A stretch of 25,154 nucleotides of DNA from a virus (Duplodnaviria; Caudoviricetes), in IMG/VR virus record IMGVR_UViG_3300048838_000571, positions 1 through 25,154 of that record; one strand, given 5' to 3'. Position 1 is the stretch's first letter; every line of letters starts with the position of its first letter. Position numbers and translations under genes: made by a program. Under the pieces are notes generated by a model that saw only the letters and a list, made by a program, of their open reading frames with translations, was not told the DNA's origin and did not search any database. This document shows positions 4,303 through 25,154 of the stretch, one piece after another.

Positions 4303-5961
4303 TCAGAACCCCTTCAGGACATCGTAGCCGGCCGGGTGCGTCCGTGTCCGTGCCTGCTCCATCCCGTGGATCGGGTCGTACCCGATCACGTTGGCGCGTG
4401 AGTTGGCGGCATTGAGCCACTTCCGCTTTGGCACTTCCATTGCCGCCAGCAAAACGGCGCTGGCACGGTCGGGAGACCGCCCAATACGATCCACGATTTC
4501 CTCCCGGCTCTCGACCTTGATCTTCCGACCCTCGATCTTCCAGCGGGGGGCGGTAAGTTCCGCCAACAGGTCCGTATCTGGGGGCAGCTCGACCCCTGTG
4601 TCGGCGTCCGGGTCGAGCAGTTCACGCATCCGCCACCACAGCTCGCTCCTGACGTTCGAGAACCCCAACCCCCCGGCCTTGATGGTCCCGTTAGTGGCTT
4701 CGGCGACGTTGACCCCGAGCACCTGCACGTTCGCCTGCATCAAGAAGTCATACGGGCTCGCGCCGACCCCGATCACGTCAATGTTCACAGGGGCGTCATC
4801 CCTCCGGTGAGCAAGCACGTGGGCCATCACTTTCGGGCCCGTGTTGGTGTCGATCCCGTGCAGGGGCTTGAGGTGATCGAACCACCAGTCGTGGTCTCGT
4901 GTCCGGTGCCGGTTGGAGACCTGGGTCGAGTCCTTCCCCCCGCGGGCTACATCAACCCCTTGCTGGAGCATTTCACCCTTCGGCGATCGGTCCTTCCACC
5001 GTGCTTGGGCTTGCTCGACCCAGCGGGTCGGTATCACCTGCCAGGGGTCGTCCTCGACCCCGGCCATGAAGTCCCCCTTCAGCATTTGGCTGCGGAGGGG
5101 CTCAGGAAGTGCCTGTAGCGTCGAGATATACCCACTCGCCACGTAGTAGGGATTGTCGGTCACCTTCGACGGAATGAAGGTCCTGGATTTCGGCACGATG
5201 ATGTCTTCGGGCTTGTGTTCAAGGGGGTCGAACTCGTAGGTCGGTTTGTCGTTGACCAGCACGAACGGGTCGCCACGATCAAGCCACATGTCCGTCGTGC
5301 CGCCCTTTCCGTCCGGCAGCATCGCGGCATACCGGATCACCCCCGCCGGAGTTGGGAACAGTGGATGCTTTCTGTCGATCCAGGGGCCAAAAAACGAGAT
5401 CACCCACCGACCCTCGTTCGTGGTCGGGGGGTTGAACGTCATCAGCACCCTCGGGCGGACAGATGGGTCCGGGCTCCGGTTCCACCCCATCACGAACCGG
5501 ACCTGATGTTCCCTTTGCTCGGTCACCTCATCGAATACCTTCAGGTCGTGGGGGCGGCCCTGCCACCGGCGCTCGTCGCCGGGGTTGTCCAACCCGGCCA
5601 GCTCCAGTAACTGGTCAGGCCCTAGCTTCCACGCGCCTTTTTGACTGTTGTAGCCGGCCGTGTTGCCGAGTACTTCCGTCATCCGTTGGACAATCCCTTC
5701 GGTCTGGGCTTTCTCCCGCCTGACGACTAGGCTTCGGCGGTGCCTCGTGAGCACAAGGCCAACCGCAAGGTCGGTCTTCCCCCCGCCGGCCGCTCCCCCG
5801 AACCCGATGATGTCGGCCTCGGCCTCGTAGGCCTGTTGCTGGGGGCCCGGCAGCGGGCGCCACCGAACCTCGGCCAGGTCTTTCGCGACAAGGCCATCAA
5901 GCTCTTCCAGTTCCTCTTCGGTGAGGTAGGCCGAGAGCGATTTGATCTCGTCGGCGTTCAC
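4303..5961 (-). CDS. terL: Terminase large subunit
   Basis: 552 aa; PLPGPQ adenine-binding motif, Walker A GGAAGGGKT, Walker B VFDE, motif III TFNP, nuclease GVDVARGGKD and C-terminal RSPDRASA. Confidence 0.95.
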   Translation of the reverse strand: MNADEIKSLSAYLTEEELEELDGLVAKDLAEVRWRPLPGPQQQAYEAEADIIGFGGAAGGGKTDLAVGLVLTRHRRSLVVRREKAQTEGIVQRMTEVLGNTAGYNSQKGAWKLGPDQLLELAGLDNPGDERRWQGRPHDLKVFDEVTEQREHQVRFVMGWNRSPDPSVRPRVLMTFNPPTTNEGRWVISFFGPWIDRKHPLFPTPAGVIRYAAMLPDGKGGTTDMWLDRGDPFVLVNDKPTYEFDPLEHKPEDIIVPKSRTFIPSKVTDNPYYVASGYISTLQALPEPLRSQMLKGDFMAGVEDDPWQVIPTRWVEQAQARWKDRSPKGEMLQQGVDVARGGKDSTQVSNRHRTRDHDWWFDHLKPLHGIDTNTGPKVMAHVLAHRRDDAPVNIDVIGVGASPYDFLMQANVQVLGVNVAEATNGTIKAGGLGFSNVRSELWWRMRELLDPDADTGVELPPDTDLLAELTAPRWKIEGRKIKVESREEIVDRIGRSPDRASAVLLAAMEVPKRKWLNAANSRANVIGYDPIHGMEQARTRTHPAGYDVLKGF

Positions 5962-12952: not shown

Positions 12953-13519
12953 ATGGCGACCAAGTACGAGCTGACCAGCGAGACCCTTGAACTCAACGGT
13001 CACACTCTTCACCGGATCCGGGCGGTCCGGTCCTTCGGCGAGATTGTCGAAGGAACCCTCGGGGGCTGGATCGAGAACGAGGGCAACCTCAGCCACGAGG
13101 GTACTGCCTGGGTCACCGACGACGCCCGGGTCTCCGGCCGCGCCTGGGTCACCGACGACGCCTGGGTCTTCGGCAACGCCTTGGTCTCCGACGACGCCTT
13201 GGTCTCCGGCCGCGCCCGGGTCTCCGGCAACGCCTTGGTCTCCGGCCGCGCCCGGGTCTCCGACGACGCCTTGGTCTCCGGCCGCGCCTGGGTCACCGAC
13301 GACGCCTGGGTCTTCGGCAACGCCTTGGTCTCCGGCAACGCCTTGGTCTCCGGCCGCGCCCGGGTCTCCGGCCGCGCCTGGGTCACCGACGACGCCCGGG
13401 TCTCCGGCCGCGCCTGGGTCACCGACGACGCCTGGGTCTTCGGCAACGCCCGGGTCTTCGGCAACGCCCGGGTCTCCGGAGACGACTGGATCTCCGGCGA
13501 CGCCCAAGTCAACAGCTAG
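12953..13519 (+). CDS. Hexapeptide-repeat (left-handed beta-helix-like) phage protein
   Basis: RBS AGGAG; N-terminal KYELT...LHRIRAVRSFG...GTLGGWIENEGNLS then more than 20 A-[RWL]-V-x-[GD]-[DNR] repeats. Confidence 0.85.
   Translation: MATKYELTSETLELNGHTLHRIRAVRSFGEIVEGTLGGWIENEGNLSHEGTAWVTDDARVSGRAWVTDDAWVFGNALVSDDALVSGRARVSGNALVSGRARVSDDALVSGRAWVTDDAWVFGNALVSGNALVSGRARVSGRAWVTDDARVSGRAWVTDDAWVFGNARVFGNARVSGDDWISGDAQVNS
13105..13510. repeat. Coding tandem repeat, 18-bp unit
   Basis: GCC(C/T)(G/T)GGTC-N9 units such as GCCTGGGTCACCGACGAC and GCCCGGGTCTCCGGCCGC in an uninterrupted array. Confidence 0.95.
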
Positions 13520-20439: not shown

Positions 20440-21806
20440 AGTTCTACCACCCCCACGACTATCAGCGGGCGATCACCTCCTGGATCGTCGACCACGACCG
20501 CTGCAACGTGTGTTCGGGGATGGGCACCGGCAAGACAGGCGCGACTCTCGCAGCGCTGCAGGCGCTCAACATGGTTGCGAACCCGTTCCCTGCGTTGGTG
20601 CTGGCCCCGCTCCGGGTCGCACGGACAACCTGGCCGGGAGAGTGCCGGAAGTGGGCAACCTTCAACCAGTTGACGCTGCTCGACTGGTCTGGCTCATCCC
20701 GGTTCCCGACAGGGACCCCGGACATCGTGGCTGTGAACTACGACAACGTGGCCGCCCTCGTCGCCCAGCGGCCGGACTGGCCCTGGCGAACGGTCATCGC
20801 GGACGAATCCACCAGGCTGAAGTCGTTCCGGCTGAAGCAAGGTGGCAAGCGCGCAAGTGCGCTCGGGAAGGTCGCCCACAAGCACACCCGCCGGTGGGTC
20901 AACCTGACCGGCACCCCTGCCCCGAACGGGCTGATCGACCTCTGGGGGCAGCAATGGTTTGTCGACGCCGGCCAAAGGCTCGGTCGCAGTTTCGACGCTT
21001 TCGAGCGACGATGGTTTGCCTGGCGCCGGCATGACGACGACAACCCATACGCGAGGACCCGGTTCCTGCTGCCGGGGGCGGCGGAGCAGATCTACCAGAA
21101 GTTGTCGGACTGCACAATCACGGTCCGGGCCGAGGATTTCATGGATCTCCCGCCCCTGGTCGAGAACGTCGTGCCGGTCGAGCTCCCGCCGAAAGCGCGG
21201 AAGCACTACCGCGAGCTGGAGAGGGAGCTGTTCACGCAGCTAGAAGGCCACGAGATCATGGCCGCGAACGCTGCAGCGAAGACGATGAAGTGCCTACAGG
21301 CCGCGAACGGGGCGCTCTACATCAACCCGGAAGGCGATTGGAAAGGGCTTCATGACGAGAAGATCGAGGCCCTCGGGTCGATTCTGGAAGAGGCCGCCGG
21401 CGCCCCGGTCCTGGTGGCCTACCATTTCAAGAGCGACCTGGAACGAATCCAGCGGGCGTTCCCTTTCGCTCGGACCTTGGGTGCTGACGGTACTGCGATC
21501 GAAGAGTGGAACGCCGGGCGAATACCTCTCCTGCTGGTACATCCTGCTTCGGCGGGGCATGGTCTCAACCTACAGGATGGCGGCAACATCCTCGCGTTCT
21601 TCGGGCTCTGGTGGGACCTCGAACAGCACCAGCAAGTGATCGAGCGGATCGGGCCCACAAGGCAGCTCCAGTCCGGCCGCAGGAGAAGCACCTACGTGCA
21701 CTACATCGTGGCCGAGGGCACCGTCGACGAGATCGTGCTCAAGCGGCTAAAGACCAAGAAGGCGGTCCAGGACCTGCTACTCGAAGCAATGAAGGAGAAC
21801 CAATGA
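20436..21806 (+). CDS. SNF2/DEAD-like superfamily 2 helicase
   Basis: ATG at 20436 (ATGA overlap); PHDYQ, MGTGKT, IADES, LTGTP and HPASAGHGLNLQ. Confidence 0.93.
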   Translation: MKFYHPHDYQRAITSWIVDHDRCNVCSGMGTGKTGATLAALQALNMVANPFPALVLAPLRVARTTWPGECRKWATFNQLTLLDWSGSSRFPTGTPDIVAVNYDNVAALVAQRPDWPWRTVIADESTRLKSFRLKQGGKRASALGKVAHKHTRRWVNLTGTPAPNGLIDLWGQQWFVDAGQRLGRSFDAFERRWFAWRRHDDDNPYARTRFLLPGAAEQIYQKLSDCTITVRAEDFMDLPPLVENVVPVELPPKARKHYRELERELFTQLEGHEIMAANAAAKTMKCLQAANGALYINPEGDWKGLHDEKIEALGSILEEAAGAPVLVAYHFKSDLERIQRAFPFARTLGADGTAIEEWNAGRIPLLLVHPASAGHGLNLQDGGNILAFFGLWWDLEQHQQVIERIGPTRQLQSGRRRSTYVHYIVAEGTVDEIVLKRLKTKKAVQDLLLEAMKENQ

Positions 21807-22282
21807 ACAACCTGTCGGCCCAGCAGCGCCGGGTCGTGGATCTTGTCGCCGCCAGCGGCAGCGAAGGGATGTCGAAGGCGGAACTGTGCCTCGCCTTGAA
21901 CGTCTACATCGGGACGCTGGAAACCTATCTCGCGGGGCTGGTGCCTGGCCGCCTGGCGGTGAACGACCCACGACCCGGCGGCAAGCGGCAAACACGGCGG
22001 TACTACCAGCCCGGGTGCGAGCCTTCACCGCAACCGAAAGCAAAGGCAAAGGCAAAGGCGAAGAAGCCGGCGCCCGTCTTTGCCCGCGTGCGGACGACGA
22101 CAATCCGCGACCTTCAGAAATCGATCACCCGTGACGAACCCGTGATCGTGCCGCCGCACGTCAAGCCAGTGACGAAGCAGAACTACATCGGCGATACCCG
22201 CTACCTGGTAACGGATGCGCCGCGCGTCATCGATGCGCGTGACTGCCGGCCATGGGCAGTGGCTGCGGCGCGGGCGGCCTGA
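21803..22282 (+). CDS. Hypothetical protein with probable N-terminal winged-helix domain (159 aa)
   Basis: ATG at 21803 after AAGGAG; LSAQQRRVVDLV...GMSKAELCLALNV...TLETYL. Confidence 0.65.
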   Translation: MNNLSAQQRRVVDLVAASGSEGMSKAELCLALNVYIGTLETYLAGLVPGRLAVNDPRPGGKRQTRRYYQPGCEPSPQPKAKAKAKAKKPAPVFARVRTTTIRDLQKSITRDEPVIVPPHVKPVTKQNYIGDTRYLVTDAPRVIDARDCRPWAVAAARAA

Positions 22283-22348
22283 CGCAGAAAAGAAAACCCA
22301 GGGGGCAAGGATGAGTGACACGCCAACACGGCGCCTGAAGGACGAGGC

Positions 22349-22519
22349 ATGACCACCCTACTCGACGCAGCACGGCAGGCGCTGGCAGCTTTGGAGTACA
22401 TGTACCACACCGCCGACCCCGGGCCTGCCCGGGACGTTTCGATGGAGGCGCTCGACGCGCTGCGCACCGCCATCGCGGAGGCGGAGCGAGCGCATGGAAT
22501 CGGAGACAGCAATGAGTGA
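22349..22519 (+). CDS. Small hypothetical protein (56 aa)
   Basis: Below the track cut-off; MTTLLDAARQALAALE...ALDALRTAIAEAERAHGIGDSNE. Confidence 0.65.
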   Translation: MTTLLDAARQALAALEYMYHTADPGPARDVSMEALDALRTAIAEAERAHGIGDSNE

Positions 22520-22841
22520 CCTTGTGAAACTCGCCCGCCAGCGCATTGACAACGACCAGCGCACACACTGGGATGGCTGCGAACGCAGCCATCGTGAGTG
22601 CCTGATCCAGCGTATGGCAGACGAGATCGAGCGGCTACGCGCTACGCTTGAGCGCCAGCAGATCAGCTATGAGCGTGAACGACAACTCGATCAGGAGGAG
22701 ACCGAGCGTCTACGCGCACAGATCGCCGATGCTGAGGTCCTCGCAGAGTACGGCCGCGATGACGGCCTGCGCGACCGGGTGTACGTGGGCGCATGGCTCT
22801 CCCCGGGCGACCGCATCGTTGTGCGGCACCGCGAGAAGTGA
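22512..22841 (+). CDS. Hypothetical protein with coiled coil (109 aa)
   Basis: ATG at 22512 after GGAG; THWDGC...HRECLI...ADEIERLR. Confidence 0.7.
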   Translation: MSDLVKLARQRIDNDQRTHWDGCERSHRECLIQRMADEIERLRATLERQQISYERERQLDQEETERLRAQIADAEVLAEYGRDDGLRDRVYVGAWLSPGDRIVVRHREK

Positions 22842-22858
22842 CGGATTAGCGGTGAGGA

Positions 22859-23089
22859 ATGAAAATGGACAAAGACACCACACCACTTACCTTCGGTAAA
22901 TACAAGGGCAAGACACCGCAAGAAGTTGCGGAGATCGACGGAAGCTACGTCATTTGGATGTTCGAGAACGTGACTCCAACTCCGTGCAGCAAAGAACTTG
23001 CGGAATCTTGTGAGGCTGACGAGCGAGAAGACGATGAAGAATGGGCCGCTGGTGCGCAGTACGGTATCGACGGATGGGATAACTGGTGA
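22859..23089 (+). CDS. DUF3820-like small protein (FGKYKG motif) with acidic tail
   Basis: LTFGKYKGKT...SYVIW pattern. Confidence 0.75.
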   Translation: MKMDKDTTPLTFGKYKGKTPQEVAEIDGSYVIWMFENVTPTPCSKELAESCEADEREDDEEWAAGAQYGIDGWDNW

Positions 23090-23143
23090 CGCTGGCGGTA
23101 CCCGGCGTAATGACGGGTTATCCGTCGTAACAGGAGCGAGCGA

Positions 23144-23491
23144 ATGGTGAAACTGACAGGCAGCGAGTGGAATCGCTTTTACAACGACGCGGGGGCTTGG
23201 CCGGATGGCGCATGGCACGAAGACGAGGAAATCACCGTGGACGGCAAAACGGCCGGTGATGACCTCGACCTTTCGGCCGTGCCGGATGGGGCAATGCTGA
23301 CCGTGGAGGGTGGTGTGGTGTACCTGACCGAAGACGCGGACTACGGCCCGTCTCTGGAAGCGCACTTCAAGCGTTGGCGCAAGCGGCAGACGACAACCGT
23401 GCTTGTCGTGGAAGTGCCGCACGAAGCCGTCAAAGTCGTGCGCGCTGCGATTGCTGCTGCTGGCGGCAAGGTAATTCGAGACAAGGAATGA
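23144..23491 (+). CDS. Hypothetical acidic protein (115 aa)
   Basis: RBS AGGAG; ATGA coupling downstream. Confidence 0.75.
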   Translation: MVKLTGSEWNRFYNDAGAWPDGAWHEDEEITVDGKTAGDDLDLSAVPDGAMLTVEGGVVYLTEDADYGPSLEAHFKRWRKRQTTTVLVVEVPHEAVKVVRAAIAAAGGKVIRDKE

Positions 23492-23796
23492 CCGCTGCAG
23501 AAACTATGCGAGTTGCTCTGCTGGCGCTGGAAGACGCCGCGAGCGTGCTAGGCACTTCCTGGGCTGACTCTGTGGCGCACAAGCCGATTGCTGCGCTACG
23601 GGCGGCGCTTGATGCTACTGACGACGACGTTGATGTGCTTGCCTCGTACAGCCGAACCGATGGCCGGCGCGAGTGGGTCAATGTCGGGACATGGCTGCGG
23701 CCTGGCGAGGTGGTGGCGCGCATGGCAGACCCGCGGCCTAACGTTCGAGCTAAGCGGGGCCAAACGGCGCCGCACAACCAAGGAGAAACGCAATGA
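23488..23796 (+). CDS. Hypothetical protein (102 aa) whose C-terminus reads into attC1
   Basis: ATG at 23488; the last residues (PNVRAKRGQTAPHNQGETQ) are encoded by the attC left arm and loop. Confidence 0.7.
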   Translation: MTAAETMRVALLALEDAASVLGTSWADSVAHKPIAALRAALDATDDDVDVLASYSRTDGRREWVNVGTWLRPGEVVARMADPRPNVRAKRGQTAPHNQGETQ

Positions 23797-23838
23797 ACTC
23801 ACCCGCCGTTTGGACTCCGCTTGAGCGAGGGGTTAGGC
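23736..23838 (-). mobile_element. attC: Integron attC-type site 1 (103 bp); the plus strand is the attC bottom strand
   Basis: GCCTAAC-6nt-GCTAAGC-GGGGCCAAACGGCG...CGCCGTTTGGACTCC-GCTTGAGC-5nt-GTTAGGC, with an extra G in the 8-nt L box. Confidence 0.88.
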
Positions 23839-24098
23839 GCCTGCTCGCATGGTGGCGAGCCGCTGGCCCCGACATGGCGACGCCGAGCGGAGGCTACGAA
23901 GCCGAGCCCGAAGAAGACCGCATCGAGGCCGCGTACTGGCGATTCGACGCGCGGCACAAGGGCTACGGCAAGTGGAAGGCCGCGCCGATGAGTGAGCGCG
24001 ACGCCTTCAAGGCCGAGATGCGCAACGCGCTGGCCGCCGAGAAAACGCGGGCACAGATGCGGCTGGTGGCGCATGGCTGGCGTCGCCCTGGCGCCTAA
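23793..24098 (+). CDS. Cassette A gene, hypothetical protein (101 aa)
   Basis: RBS AAGGAG and ATG lie within the attC1 loop; the stop TAA is part of the next GCCTAAC. Confidence 0.75.
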   Translation: MNSPAVWTPLERGVRRLLAWWRAAGPDMATPSGGYEAEPEEDRIEAAYWRFDARHKGYGKWKAAPMSERDAFKAEMRNALAAEKTRAQMRLVAHGWRRPGA

Positions 24099-24148
24099 CA
24101 CCTGAAATCACGCGCGCCGAAGGCGTCGCGTGCATTGAATAGTTATGC
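24093..24148 (-). mobile_element. attC: Integron attC-type site 2 (56 bp)
   Basis: GCCTAAC-ACCTGA-AATCACG-CG-CGCC-GAA-GGCG-T-CG-CGTGCATT-GAATA-GTTATGC; two extrahelical bases in the right arm. Confidence 0.88.
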
Positions 24149-24173
24149 GGCTCTGGCCGCGACGGAGAGGAAG

Positions 24174-24602
24174 ATGAGTAACGAGAAAACACCTGTTGCA
24201 TACCTGCACCAAGTTGTCTGCGGAGACGGCGAGCCAGACCAAGCGTTGTCGTTCGAGCCGGACAATTTCCCGCTTTCCGGAGTGCTCGGATACAGGTCGT
24301 TGTCGCATGAGCCGCTATTTCGTGCGGAACCGAGCAACGAGCTGGAGCGCCTGCGAACTGAACTCGGTCGCGCCTACCGAGCACTGCACGCATTTGCATT
24401 CGCCTACCGCCATGGCAAGTTTCTAAACGAAACCGCCGTCATGTATCACTCGCCGACCATCGGCGCAGCGGCGCGGTTCGTACATGGTGGCGCGCTCGAT
24501 GGCTCCGAATACTTCATCGGAAAGCCGGTCGACGTTCTGCATGCGGCCCTGCGCGGCGAACAGCCAAAGCCGCATAACGCCCGAGTTCAGCCGCTGCCGT
24601 AG
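24174..24602 (+). CDS. Cassette B gene, hypothetical protein (142 aa)
   Basis: ATG at 24174 after GGAGAGG; PVAYL...EPLF and ELERLR motifs; stops inside the attC3 loop. Confidence 0.75.
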   Translation: MSNEKTPVAYLHQVVCGDGEPDQALSFEPDNFPLSGVLGYRSLSHEPLFRAEPSNELERLRTELGRAYRALHAFAFAYRHGKFLNETAVMYHSPTIGAAARFVHGGALDGSEYFIGKPVDVLHAALRGEQPKPHNARVQPLP

Positions 24603-24629
24603 GCAGTCGGCTGGAACGAAGTGTTAGGC
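24572..24629 (-). mobile_element. attC: Integron attC-type site 3 (58 bp)
   Basis: GCATAAC-GCCCGA-GTTCAGC-CG-CTGCC-GTA-GGCAG-T-CG-GCTGGAAC-GAAGT-GTTAGGC; canonical extrahelical G and T. Confidence 0.92.
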
Positions 24630-24645
24630 ATCAACTGGAGAAGCG

Positions 24646-25029
24646 ATGGAACTGGTTTTGATCCGTGGGCTGCCTGGCAGCGGCAAAACGACGATGGCGC
24701 GCGTGCTGGAGATGGTGGGCTACGAACACCACGAAGCCGACCATTACTTTGAGCGCGCCGGACACTATGCGTTTGACGCTGCCGAACTGCCGAAGGCCCA
24801 TGAGTGGTGTTTGCGGCGCGCAAAAGACAGCATGGCGCGAGGCGTGCGCTGCGTGGTGGCCAACACCTTCACGCGCCGCTGGGAAATGCAGCCGTACTTT
24901 GATGCTGCAAAGGCGGCTGGCGTGCCCGTGCGAGTGATCGAGGCTCGCGGCGCTTGGCAGAACTGCCACGGCGTGCCGGCCGACGCCATTGAGCGGATGC
25001 GGGCGCGGTGGGAGTTGGTTGATGCCTAA
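24646..25029 (+). CDS. Cassette C gene, P-loop kinase (AAA_33/polynucleotide-kinase-like)
   Basis: LVLIRGLPGSGKTT, EADHYF, AHEWC, VVANTF and HGVP; the stop TAA is part of GCCTAAC. Confidence 0.88.
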   Translation: MELVLIRGLPGSGKTTMARVLEMVGYEHHEADHYFERAGHYAFDAAELPKAHEWCLRRAKDSMARGVRCVVANTFTRRWEMQPYFDAAKAAGVPVRVIEARGAWQNCHGVPADAIERMRARWELVDA

Positions 25030-25101
25030 CGCAATCTAGGGCGCAGGAATGCGCCCATAACCGGATAGTGGCGCATCCCTGCGCCCATAACCGGATAGTG
25101 G
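25024..25101 (-). mobile_element. Candidate attI-like primary cassette insertion site with 22-bp direct repeats
   Basis: Single core GCCTAAC without a closing GTTRRRY; TGCGCCCATAACCGGATAGTGG at 25050-25071 and 25080-25101. Confidence 0.55.
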
Positions 25102-25102
25102 T

Positions 25103-25153
25103 TCACTTGGTCGTCCTGCTTGCGTCATCCTTGCGCGAGCTGCTGATACTGGT
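25103..25153 (-). CDS. 3' end of a convergent gene, possibly holin-like
   Basis: Reads ...TSISSSRKDDASRTTK-stop, resembling the F-G-[ST]-S-x-x-S-x-x-K tails of phage membrane proteins; only 17 codons are visible. Confidence 0.3.
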   Translation of the reverse strand, partial: TSISSSRKDDASRTTK

Positions 25154-25154
25154 C

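Follow-up and report, generated by a model that had tools for sequence, protein, structure and literature searches.

At the 3′ end of the phage DNA analysed here (the window, 25,154 nucleotides), it was found that three small genes and their attC sites behave as an integron cassette array, and that the polarity of this array is inverted. The array is a CALIN with an attI and not a complete integron, and the canonical polarity fails for it. The sites, their polarity, the cassette boundaries, the exchange of neighbours among relatives, the homology of the attI and the missing integrase are established by observation. Taken together, I judge it quite probable that this is a phage-borne, integrase-less, inverted array in which three genes, each led by an attC, run up to an attI-like site, and that a bacterial IntI likely acts on it in trans. 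The original prediction had flagged the pairing of cassette ends. That lead ended in a polarity rule which separates phage from bacterial cassettes under one search pattern: the gene is on the attC's bottom strand, and hence inverted, in 139 of 147 cassettes from viruses, as against 55 of 266 from bacteria.

Layout and polarity of the array

The window is a phage fragment with genes for a portal protein, a terminase, a primase-helicase, a DUF2800 exonuclease, an SSB, a family A polymerase, a VRR-NUC protein and an SNF2 helicase. After the SNF2 helicase gene, small genes on the plus strand continue as far as the contig end, where the array lies (Table 1). A YdcK beta-solenoid repeat protein (phrog_7964) is encoded at 12953-13519, at the start of the plus-strand operon. 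An inverted pair, GTCCAAC...GTTGGAC, in the terminase gene region (5587-5691) is probably a chance occurrence, which came up only in an initial loose scan and was absent from the strict scan.

Table 1. Features of the array region, in window coordinates
Feature	Position	Strand	Description
Last upstream phage ORF	23488..23796	+	102 aa; reads across attC1's left R box, with its stop codon in the attC1 loop
attC1	23736..23838	+	Long, 89-nt inner part; plus strand is the bottom strand; right arm has the extra base G
Cassette A	23742..24098	+	357 bp, attC1 and gene A; ends (23832/24090) pair 10/10
Gene A	23793-24098	+	101 aa; no Pfam or PHROG match
attC2	24093..24148	+	42-nt inner part; plus strand is the bottom strand; extra base C; part of cassette B
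Cassette B	24099..24577	+	479 bp, attC2 and gene B; ends (24142/24563) pair 15/16
Gene B	24174-24602	+	142 aa; crosses the R box and stops in the attC3 loop; no Pfam match
attC3	24572..24629	+	44-nt inner part; plus strand is the bottom strand; extra base G; part of cassette C
Cassette C	24578..25029	+	452 bp, attC3 and gene C; ends (24623/25018) pair 13/13
Gene C	24646-25029	+	127 aa; AAA_33 / phrog_2071 ATPase-kinase
attI-like docking site	25024..25099	-	R box GCCTAAC, 6 nt, TAGGGCG, two 30-nt direct repeats

All three sites have the attC architecture, with 7/7 paired L-box positions, spacers of 6 and 5 nt and one extra base (G, C and G). On the plus strand, the left spacer is the 6-nt one, the right spacer is the 5-nt one, and it is the right arm that bears the unpaired L-box base. 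The extra base is located on the R''-L'' arm of the top strand, according to the passages of PMC2727003 that deal with it, and the aadA7 bottom strand has been published with the same layout as the present plus strand, as a portion of the PMC9892861 supplement shows. Since the extra base is on the right arm of the plus strand, the plus strand is the attC bottom strand; thus, the array reads on the minus strand and its genes are inverted. The strand caller assigned the assayed bottom strand of TJE1_attC1 correctly. Genes A, B and C are all encoded on the bottom strand, each 3′ of its own attC, and they point at the attI-like end; a top-strand gene followed by its attC, which is the canonical polarity, was not found. 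A cassette composed of the upstream hairpin and the gene explains why gene A has its RBS (AAGGAG, 23780-23785) and start codon (23793) within the attC1 loop, and accounts for the half site at which the array terminates. A homologue of gene A in another array (locus L054, 89% nucleotide identity) is likewise placed behind a long attC with the RBS and ATG in the loop. The textbook polarity, gene and then attC, gives units of 310 and 481 bp and has no fourth attC, and it was ruled out by the extrahelical base and the boundary data. The stop codon of the last upstream ORF overlaps with the start codon of gene A (ATGA), and this ORF is likely an eroded or a cassette-capable gene. In a crude scan of 21700-25154, no sigma-70-like site was found, and the genes face away from an attI-to-array reading anyway.

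No integrase accompanies the array. None of the 38 window ORFs scanned matched an integrase family, the IntI profile TIGR02249 matched in 0 of 4 records, and whole-record searches of G000 and G001 gave no PF00589 match. Neither in G000 nor in G001 does an intI adjoin the array, as it would in a complete integron; the window ends 124 bp past the attI core. A phage genome with three attC sites within a few kb and no integrase fits the definition of a phage CALIN. G001 is a 46-kb record rated 100% complete, which is identical to the window from 21700 to 24223 and stops there. Because G001 ends within cassette B, the DNA past the attI-like site is known only from other phages. It was considered whether cassettes B and C are absent from G001 (locus L053), and this was ruled out, as the record just ends at window position 24223. 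Among annotated phages, the array region had no match, and a query with the cassette of L061 gave only short matches at chance level. The helicase relatives (L002-L052) have no array. The final attC scanner gave 4 matches in 51 helicase loci used as background, while a first scanner was dropped as too loose.

Paired ends and exchange of cassettes

The prediction that the two ends of each cassette are complementary beyond the 7-bp core proved exact at every position and length (Table 1), with the single mismatch of cassette B at pair position 12 (base 24153). The resident cores do mismatch as described, since those of attC2 (GCCTAAC/GTTATGC) and attC3 (GCATAAC/GTTAGGC) are each one position off. 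In a 3 x 4 matrix of starts by ends, the cognate pairs have unbroken runs of 10, 11 and 13, versus 4-7 for the nine non-cognate pairs. When starts and ends from 413 other cassettes are paired at random (200,000 pairs), the frequencies of runs of at least 10, at least 11 and at least 13 are 0.016, 0.006 and 0.0002, and the product of the three is about 2e-8. The circle sizes of 357, 479 and 452 bp given beforehand are right only when each cassette consists of the upstream attC and the gene. Folding of the in silico circularised junctions had been suggested as a check. On the plus strand, the rebuilt circles are more stable than the resident sites (-32.0 vs -26.5, -27.7 vs -18.9 and -28.4 vs -17.9 kcal/mol), a gain of 5.5 to 10.5 kcal/mol. 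As expected of a cassette, the R boxes pair completely in the circle, and those in the array are hybrid. It had also been asked whether homologous genes elsewhere lack these ends; cassettes B and C keep them in close homologues (L404 and L405 for B, L061 and L062 for C), beside other neighbours. Together with the better folding of the circles, this supports the reading of the resident sites as hybrids made by real mobility. However, the end pairing marks past insertion and not present activity. Neither circle junctions nor deletion junctions were found in 8 read runs, none of which covered this phage in full; the best run contained 0.15 of the sampled words.

Is the pairing peculiar to this phage? 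In the part of Bouvier et al. 2009 (PMC2727003) that treats cassette ends, self-pairing is reported to reach past the 7-nt R boxes to 9-11 consecutive nucleotides in most cassettes, and a section of PMC5371416 indicates that resident cores need not match. I surveyed a viral and a bacterial collection with one attC search pattern, which gave 130 viral loci (25/64 parts) and 152 bacterial stretches (3/64 parts), and full flanks were retrieved for 80 loci per collection. Each distinct stretch of at most 1.5 kb between two like-oriented attC sites was counted as a cassette, which yielded the 147 viral and 266 bacterial cassettes from a single attC pattern in partial scans, with related records not collapsed. 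Viral and bacterial cassettes alike have a median unbroken run of 9, and runs of at least 10 are present in 62/147 viral and 129/266 bacterial cassettes. In both sets, the matching of cognate ends is 0.45-0.52 at position 12 and then about background (0.24-0.30) at position 13. The present array pairs over 10, 11 and 13 nucleotides, compared with 9-11 for the R'/R'' pairing of Bouvier et al., and nothing essential differs; what the present survey adds to that picture is the sharp drop to background at position 13 in viral and bacterial cassettes. Since the pairing is published as general and has the same distribution in bacteria, it is not special to the phage array. Matching cassette ends are already known, ordinary integron anatomy.

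Homologous cassettes alter both ends jointly, at position 5 in the pair L100/L140 and at position 8 in the pair L274/L329. In relatives of cassette B, a T at 24153 restores pair 12, and a C at 24154 breaks pair 13. The excess of G:T over A:C at positions 8-12 is not significant (28:17 in viral and 41:32 in bacterial cassettes), and thus this test does not demonstrate selection on the outer stem. The arm sizes of tyrosine recombinases are the basis for the reach of one recombinase monomer. By this analogy, the 12-bp reach of the pairing is likely to represent a stem length kept for the binding of the integrase, one monomer in extent.

The boundaries of exchange can be read from relatives. Contigs of X4, X5 and X6, from three studies, match the window over 24093-24578/24581 with 19 differing letters, within longer contigs, and carry the T at 24153. 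An identical 42-nt inner part of attC2 is located upstream of gene B in L404 and L405 (99.4% and 91.9% identity to cassette B), with different flanking cassettes. A contig of X12 matches 23400-23741, and from the AA|C point onward its sequence is a different one. These boundaries (X4, X5, X6, L404 and L405, and the X12 break at 23741) indicate movement as a unit with the crossover in AAC. L407 is a counter-example, where gene B is behind another attC and has a non-complementary 3′ end. Cassette C has the same ends in L061 and L062 but other upstream hairpins. Among homologue pairs, the upstream hairpin is more similar than the downstream one in 5/9 viral versus 9/10 bacterial pairs. Over longer distances, the link between a gene and its upstream hairpin is loose in phages.

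Homologues without cassette ends exist for all three genes. For gene A, they are found in L055-L059, in an ordinary phage context where the attC scan listed no site; for gene B, in L408, L410 and L412; and for gene C, 24 of the 26 full-length homologues checked have no cassette ends. Upstream of the array, the homologue of ORF 23488 in X7 is preceded by TAGGCCGCG, which is complementary to the 3′ end of that segment in the window, a cassette-type start. In X1, an attC-like site adjoins the homologue of ORF 22859. In the window, 22859-23089 is a gene for an ExoX-like C-terminal domain, and a small hairpin (about 23112-23126) follows it instead of an attC. At 23473-23474, contigs of X7, X10 and X11 break on both sides; this marks a module boundary that separates ORF 23144 from ORF 23488 and has no attC in the window. 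I also considered the left end of the array as an attG target, for which an empty form would restore the upstream ORF, and this was not supported, because no empty site was found and the ORF of relatives has a cassette-type start.

The docking site and the strand of phage cassettes

Each 30-nt repeat of the attI-like site contains GTTATGG on the minus strand. Six records contain an exact 19-mer of the site, at 7 other viral loci in total, and the last segment before it differs each time. Of these, L394 and L395 have 2 and 1 detected attC sites, respectively, despite 98% identity across the 4 kb downstream. A looser pattern revealed 5 bacterial loci, all in Rubrivivax or Burkholderiales MAGs. 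Positions 25024-25103 align with L399 (a Rubrivivax MAG) at 53/80 identical bases, ungapped and with the same spacing, and the L399 site is about 180 bp ahead of a full IntI (461 bits, cut-off 265). The Pfam-matched genes beside three bacterial copies of the site are on the top strand. A match to the site is present in only 1 of the 23 IntI loci of the genus of G055 that have enough upstream DNA, and IntI exceeds the cut-off in 58/81 genomes of that genus. The attI1 site has the same layout as the docking site, with only 17-18 of 73 bases identical. By homology and position, 25024-25099 is therefore assigned as an attI, of one subfamily only. Since the site has TAA and TAG in two frames at 25027-25039, a last gene that crosses the R box ends there, and ORFs in L394 and L397 end in the attI-like site in this way. 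One viral contig (L396/L397) carries two attI-like copies about 4.3 kb apart. In one Rubrivivax MAG, this attI type is present three times, on separate contigs (L399, L400 and L403), with an IntI over the cut-off beside one of them.

Strands of cassette genes were called with a codon and RBS model trained on the long ORFs of the fetched loci. By this model, 55 of 63 viral loci are all inverted, 3 are mixed and 5 are canonical, with 8 of the 147 viral cassettes called canonical. In the bacterial set, 182 of the 266 cassettes are canonical and 29 are undecided. As an independent check, the longest ORF per strand was examined in 72 random viral and 72 random bacterial cassettes shorter than 900 bp. 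Family matches were distributed bottom to top as 14:1 in the viral set (PHROG) versus 0:16 in the bacterial set (Pfam; Fisher p 6e-8). Among the products encoded by viral cassettes are DNA methyltransferases, an RNA ligase and a DHH phosphoesterase. Of the 139 inverted cassettes, 33 have their start codon predicted within the upstream attC (18/36 of those behind long sites), as compared with 9 of 182 canonical bacterial cassettes. Some bacterial loci have many inverted-called cassettes, namely L257 (Rhodanobacter; 3/3), L304 (9/12) and L250 (6/11). The terminal site of L257 resembles that of viral L141, and L257 may be a prophage.

Proposed docking of phage genes and alternative explanations

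How could such an array be built? IntI acts on folded bottom strands, as stated in part of PMC5027507. A cassette circle would fold its attC on the plus (bottom) strand, and both gene ends would lengthen the stem to 10-13 bp. IntI would then join the circle at AA|C into the attI-like site. The insertion would split the stem between the two gene ends and leave mismatched hybrid cores at the resident sites. Since the early operon reads toward the attI on the plus strand, only cassettes with a bottom-strand gene would be expressed. New genes would join the tail of the early operon, the newest last, and attC loops would often supply an RBS, a start codon or a stop codon. The oldest cassettes, beside the core operon, would shed their attC and become ordinary genes. 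Distal cassettes would thus erode, although the direction may be either erosion or birth. In short, it is likely that the phage borrows a bacterial integrase to append genes to the end of its early operon.

The same sites could instead be served by a phage-derived integrase, either an intI since lost from the lineage or the IntI of a co-infecting phage or prophage, which I consider unlikely. L176 (record G053) is a complete inverted integron in a virus record: a full IntI over the cut-off, at 4643-5569 on the reverse strand, is about 60 bp past the terminal half site, beside two inverted-called cassettes, and thus a phage-borne IntI is possible. The presence of the same attI-like site in unrelated phage backbones would also fit. 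However, IntI exceeds the cut-off in only 2 of the 50 array-bearing viral records searched (50 of the 79 listed), and one of these two is the record of a class 1 integron; among the 11 records with a completeness of at least 90%, it does so in none. None of the 5 records with the exact docking site has an IntI over the cut-off, and no intI remnant was recognized 3′ of the site in L392-L398 by ORF reading. Even less probable is a frozen relic, in which a piece of an integron was captured once and then reshuffled only by homologous or illegitimate phage recombination between similar hairpins and genes. Hairpins swapped relative to genes in distant homologues (L407 among them), the boundary at 23473 without an attC in X7, X10 and X11, and the lack of circles in the 8 read runs agree with a relic. 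Against it, the breakpoints of close relatives are at R boxes (24093-24578; 23741) and not within hairpins, the genes are phage-type and inverted versus the canonical genes beside bacterial copies of the site, and no homologous pair was found among 147 viral x 266 bacterial cassettes.

It is very improbable that the array is an inversion switch, whose 10-13-bp inverted ends flip genes between hairpins, so that inverted cassettes would be flipped canonical ones. A perfect inverted repeat does bracket each gene, and the few canonical calls among viral cassettes could be the other state. In contrast, no strand-changing joint was listed in the 8 read runs, all 44 of the 44 listed homologous cassette pairs aligned on the same strand, and bacterial cassettes show the same end pairing. 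A flip would also part gene A from its RBS and start codon in the upstream hairpin, as it would the inverted cassettes predicted to start there. The preferred reading remains docking by a bacterial IntI in trans. A wider version of it is tentative, and I would rather lean against it: phages may keep their own pool of mirror-image cassettes, which would arise repeatedly out of ordinary phage genes and enter captured attI sites with the help of integrases borrowed from the host. If so, the phage would express these cassettes, whereas in host integrons they would stay silent. Since the same genes occur with ends, without ends and with different attC hairpins, the arrays would then show cassette birth and domestication under way, a still-unexplained step of integron biology. 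How cassettes originate can be tested by comparing copies of one gene that have cassette ends with copies that lack them.

Comparison with known systems

Phage CALINs were described by Qi et al. 2023 (PMC9892861), with 17 in 10,705 genomes. By estimate, about 320 viral stretches match the one narrow attC pattern used here. The published elements share with the present ones the integrase-less attC clusters in phage genomes and phage-useful cargo such as methyltransferases, and their attC sites were recombined by IntI1 (PMC9892861). Gene inversion is not described in that paper, and its example TJE1 is canonical by the present caller. In contrast to TJE1, the present array and most sampled viral arrays are inverted, and the present array ends at an attI-like site. 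The phage array shares a homologous attI, the attC layout and the end pairing with sedentary chromosomal integrons of Betaproteobacteria, such as that of Rubrivivax L399. Unlike them, it has no intI and so no intI-associated Pc, and its genes are on the bottom strand facing the attI, with start and stop codons in attC loops. From what the relevant part of the attG and SALIN preprint (bioRxiv 10.1101/2022.09.11.507474) reports, IntI can place cassettes outside its own integron. The attG target there is a short genomic hotspot, whereas the phage target is a conserved attI homologue with direct repeats, reused by many phages. No description of inverted phage cassettes was found in the parts of the literature searched (including PMC8352920, PMC7439510 and PMC8876359), a scope that leaves out subscription papers, bioRxiv supplements and Supplementary File S1 of PMC9892861. 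If phages append early-operon genes via host integrases, integrons would be a gene-shuffling tool of phages besides being defence libraries of bacteria.

Arrays in phages can be long, since 9-12 consecutive cassettes are present in the complete phage records L123, L140 and L167. A large number of viral contigs terminate at or beside an attC (for example L107, L108, L119, L131, L133, L134, L139 and L142), as G001 ends within cassette B. Mixed cassette content in a population may break assemblies at attC sites.
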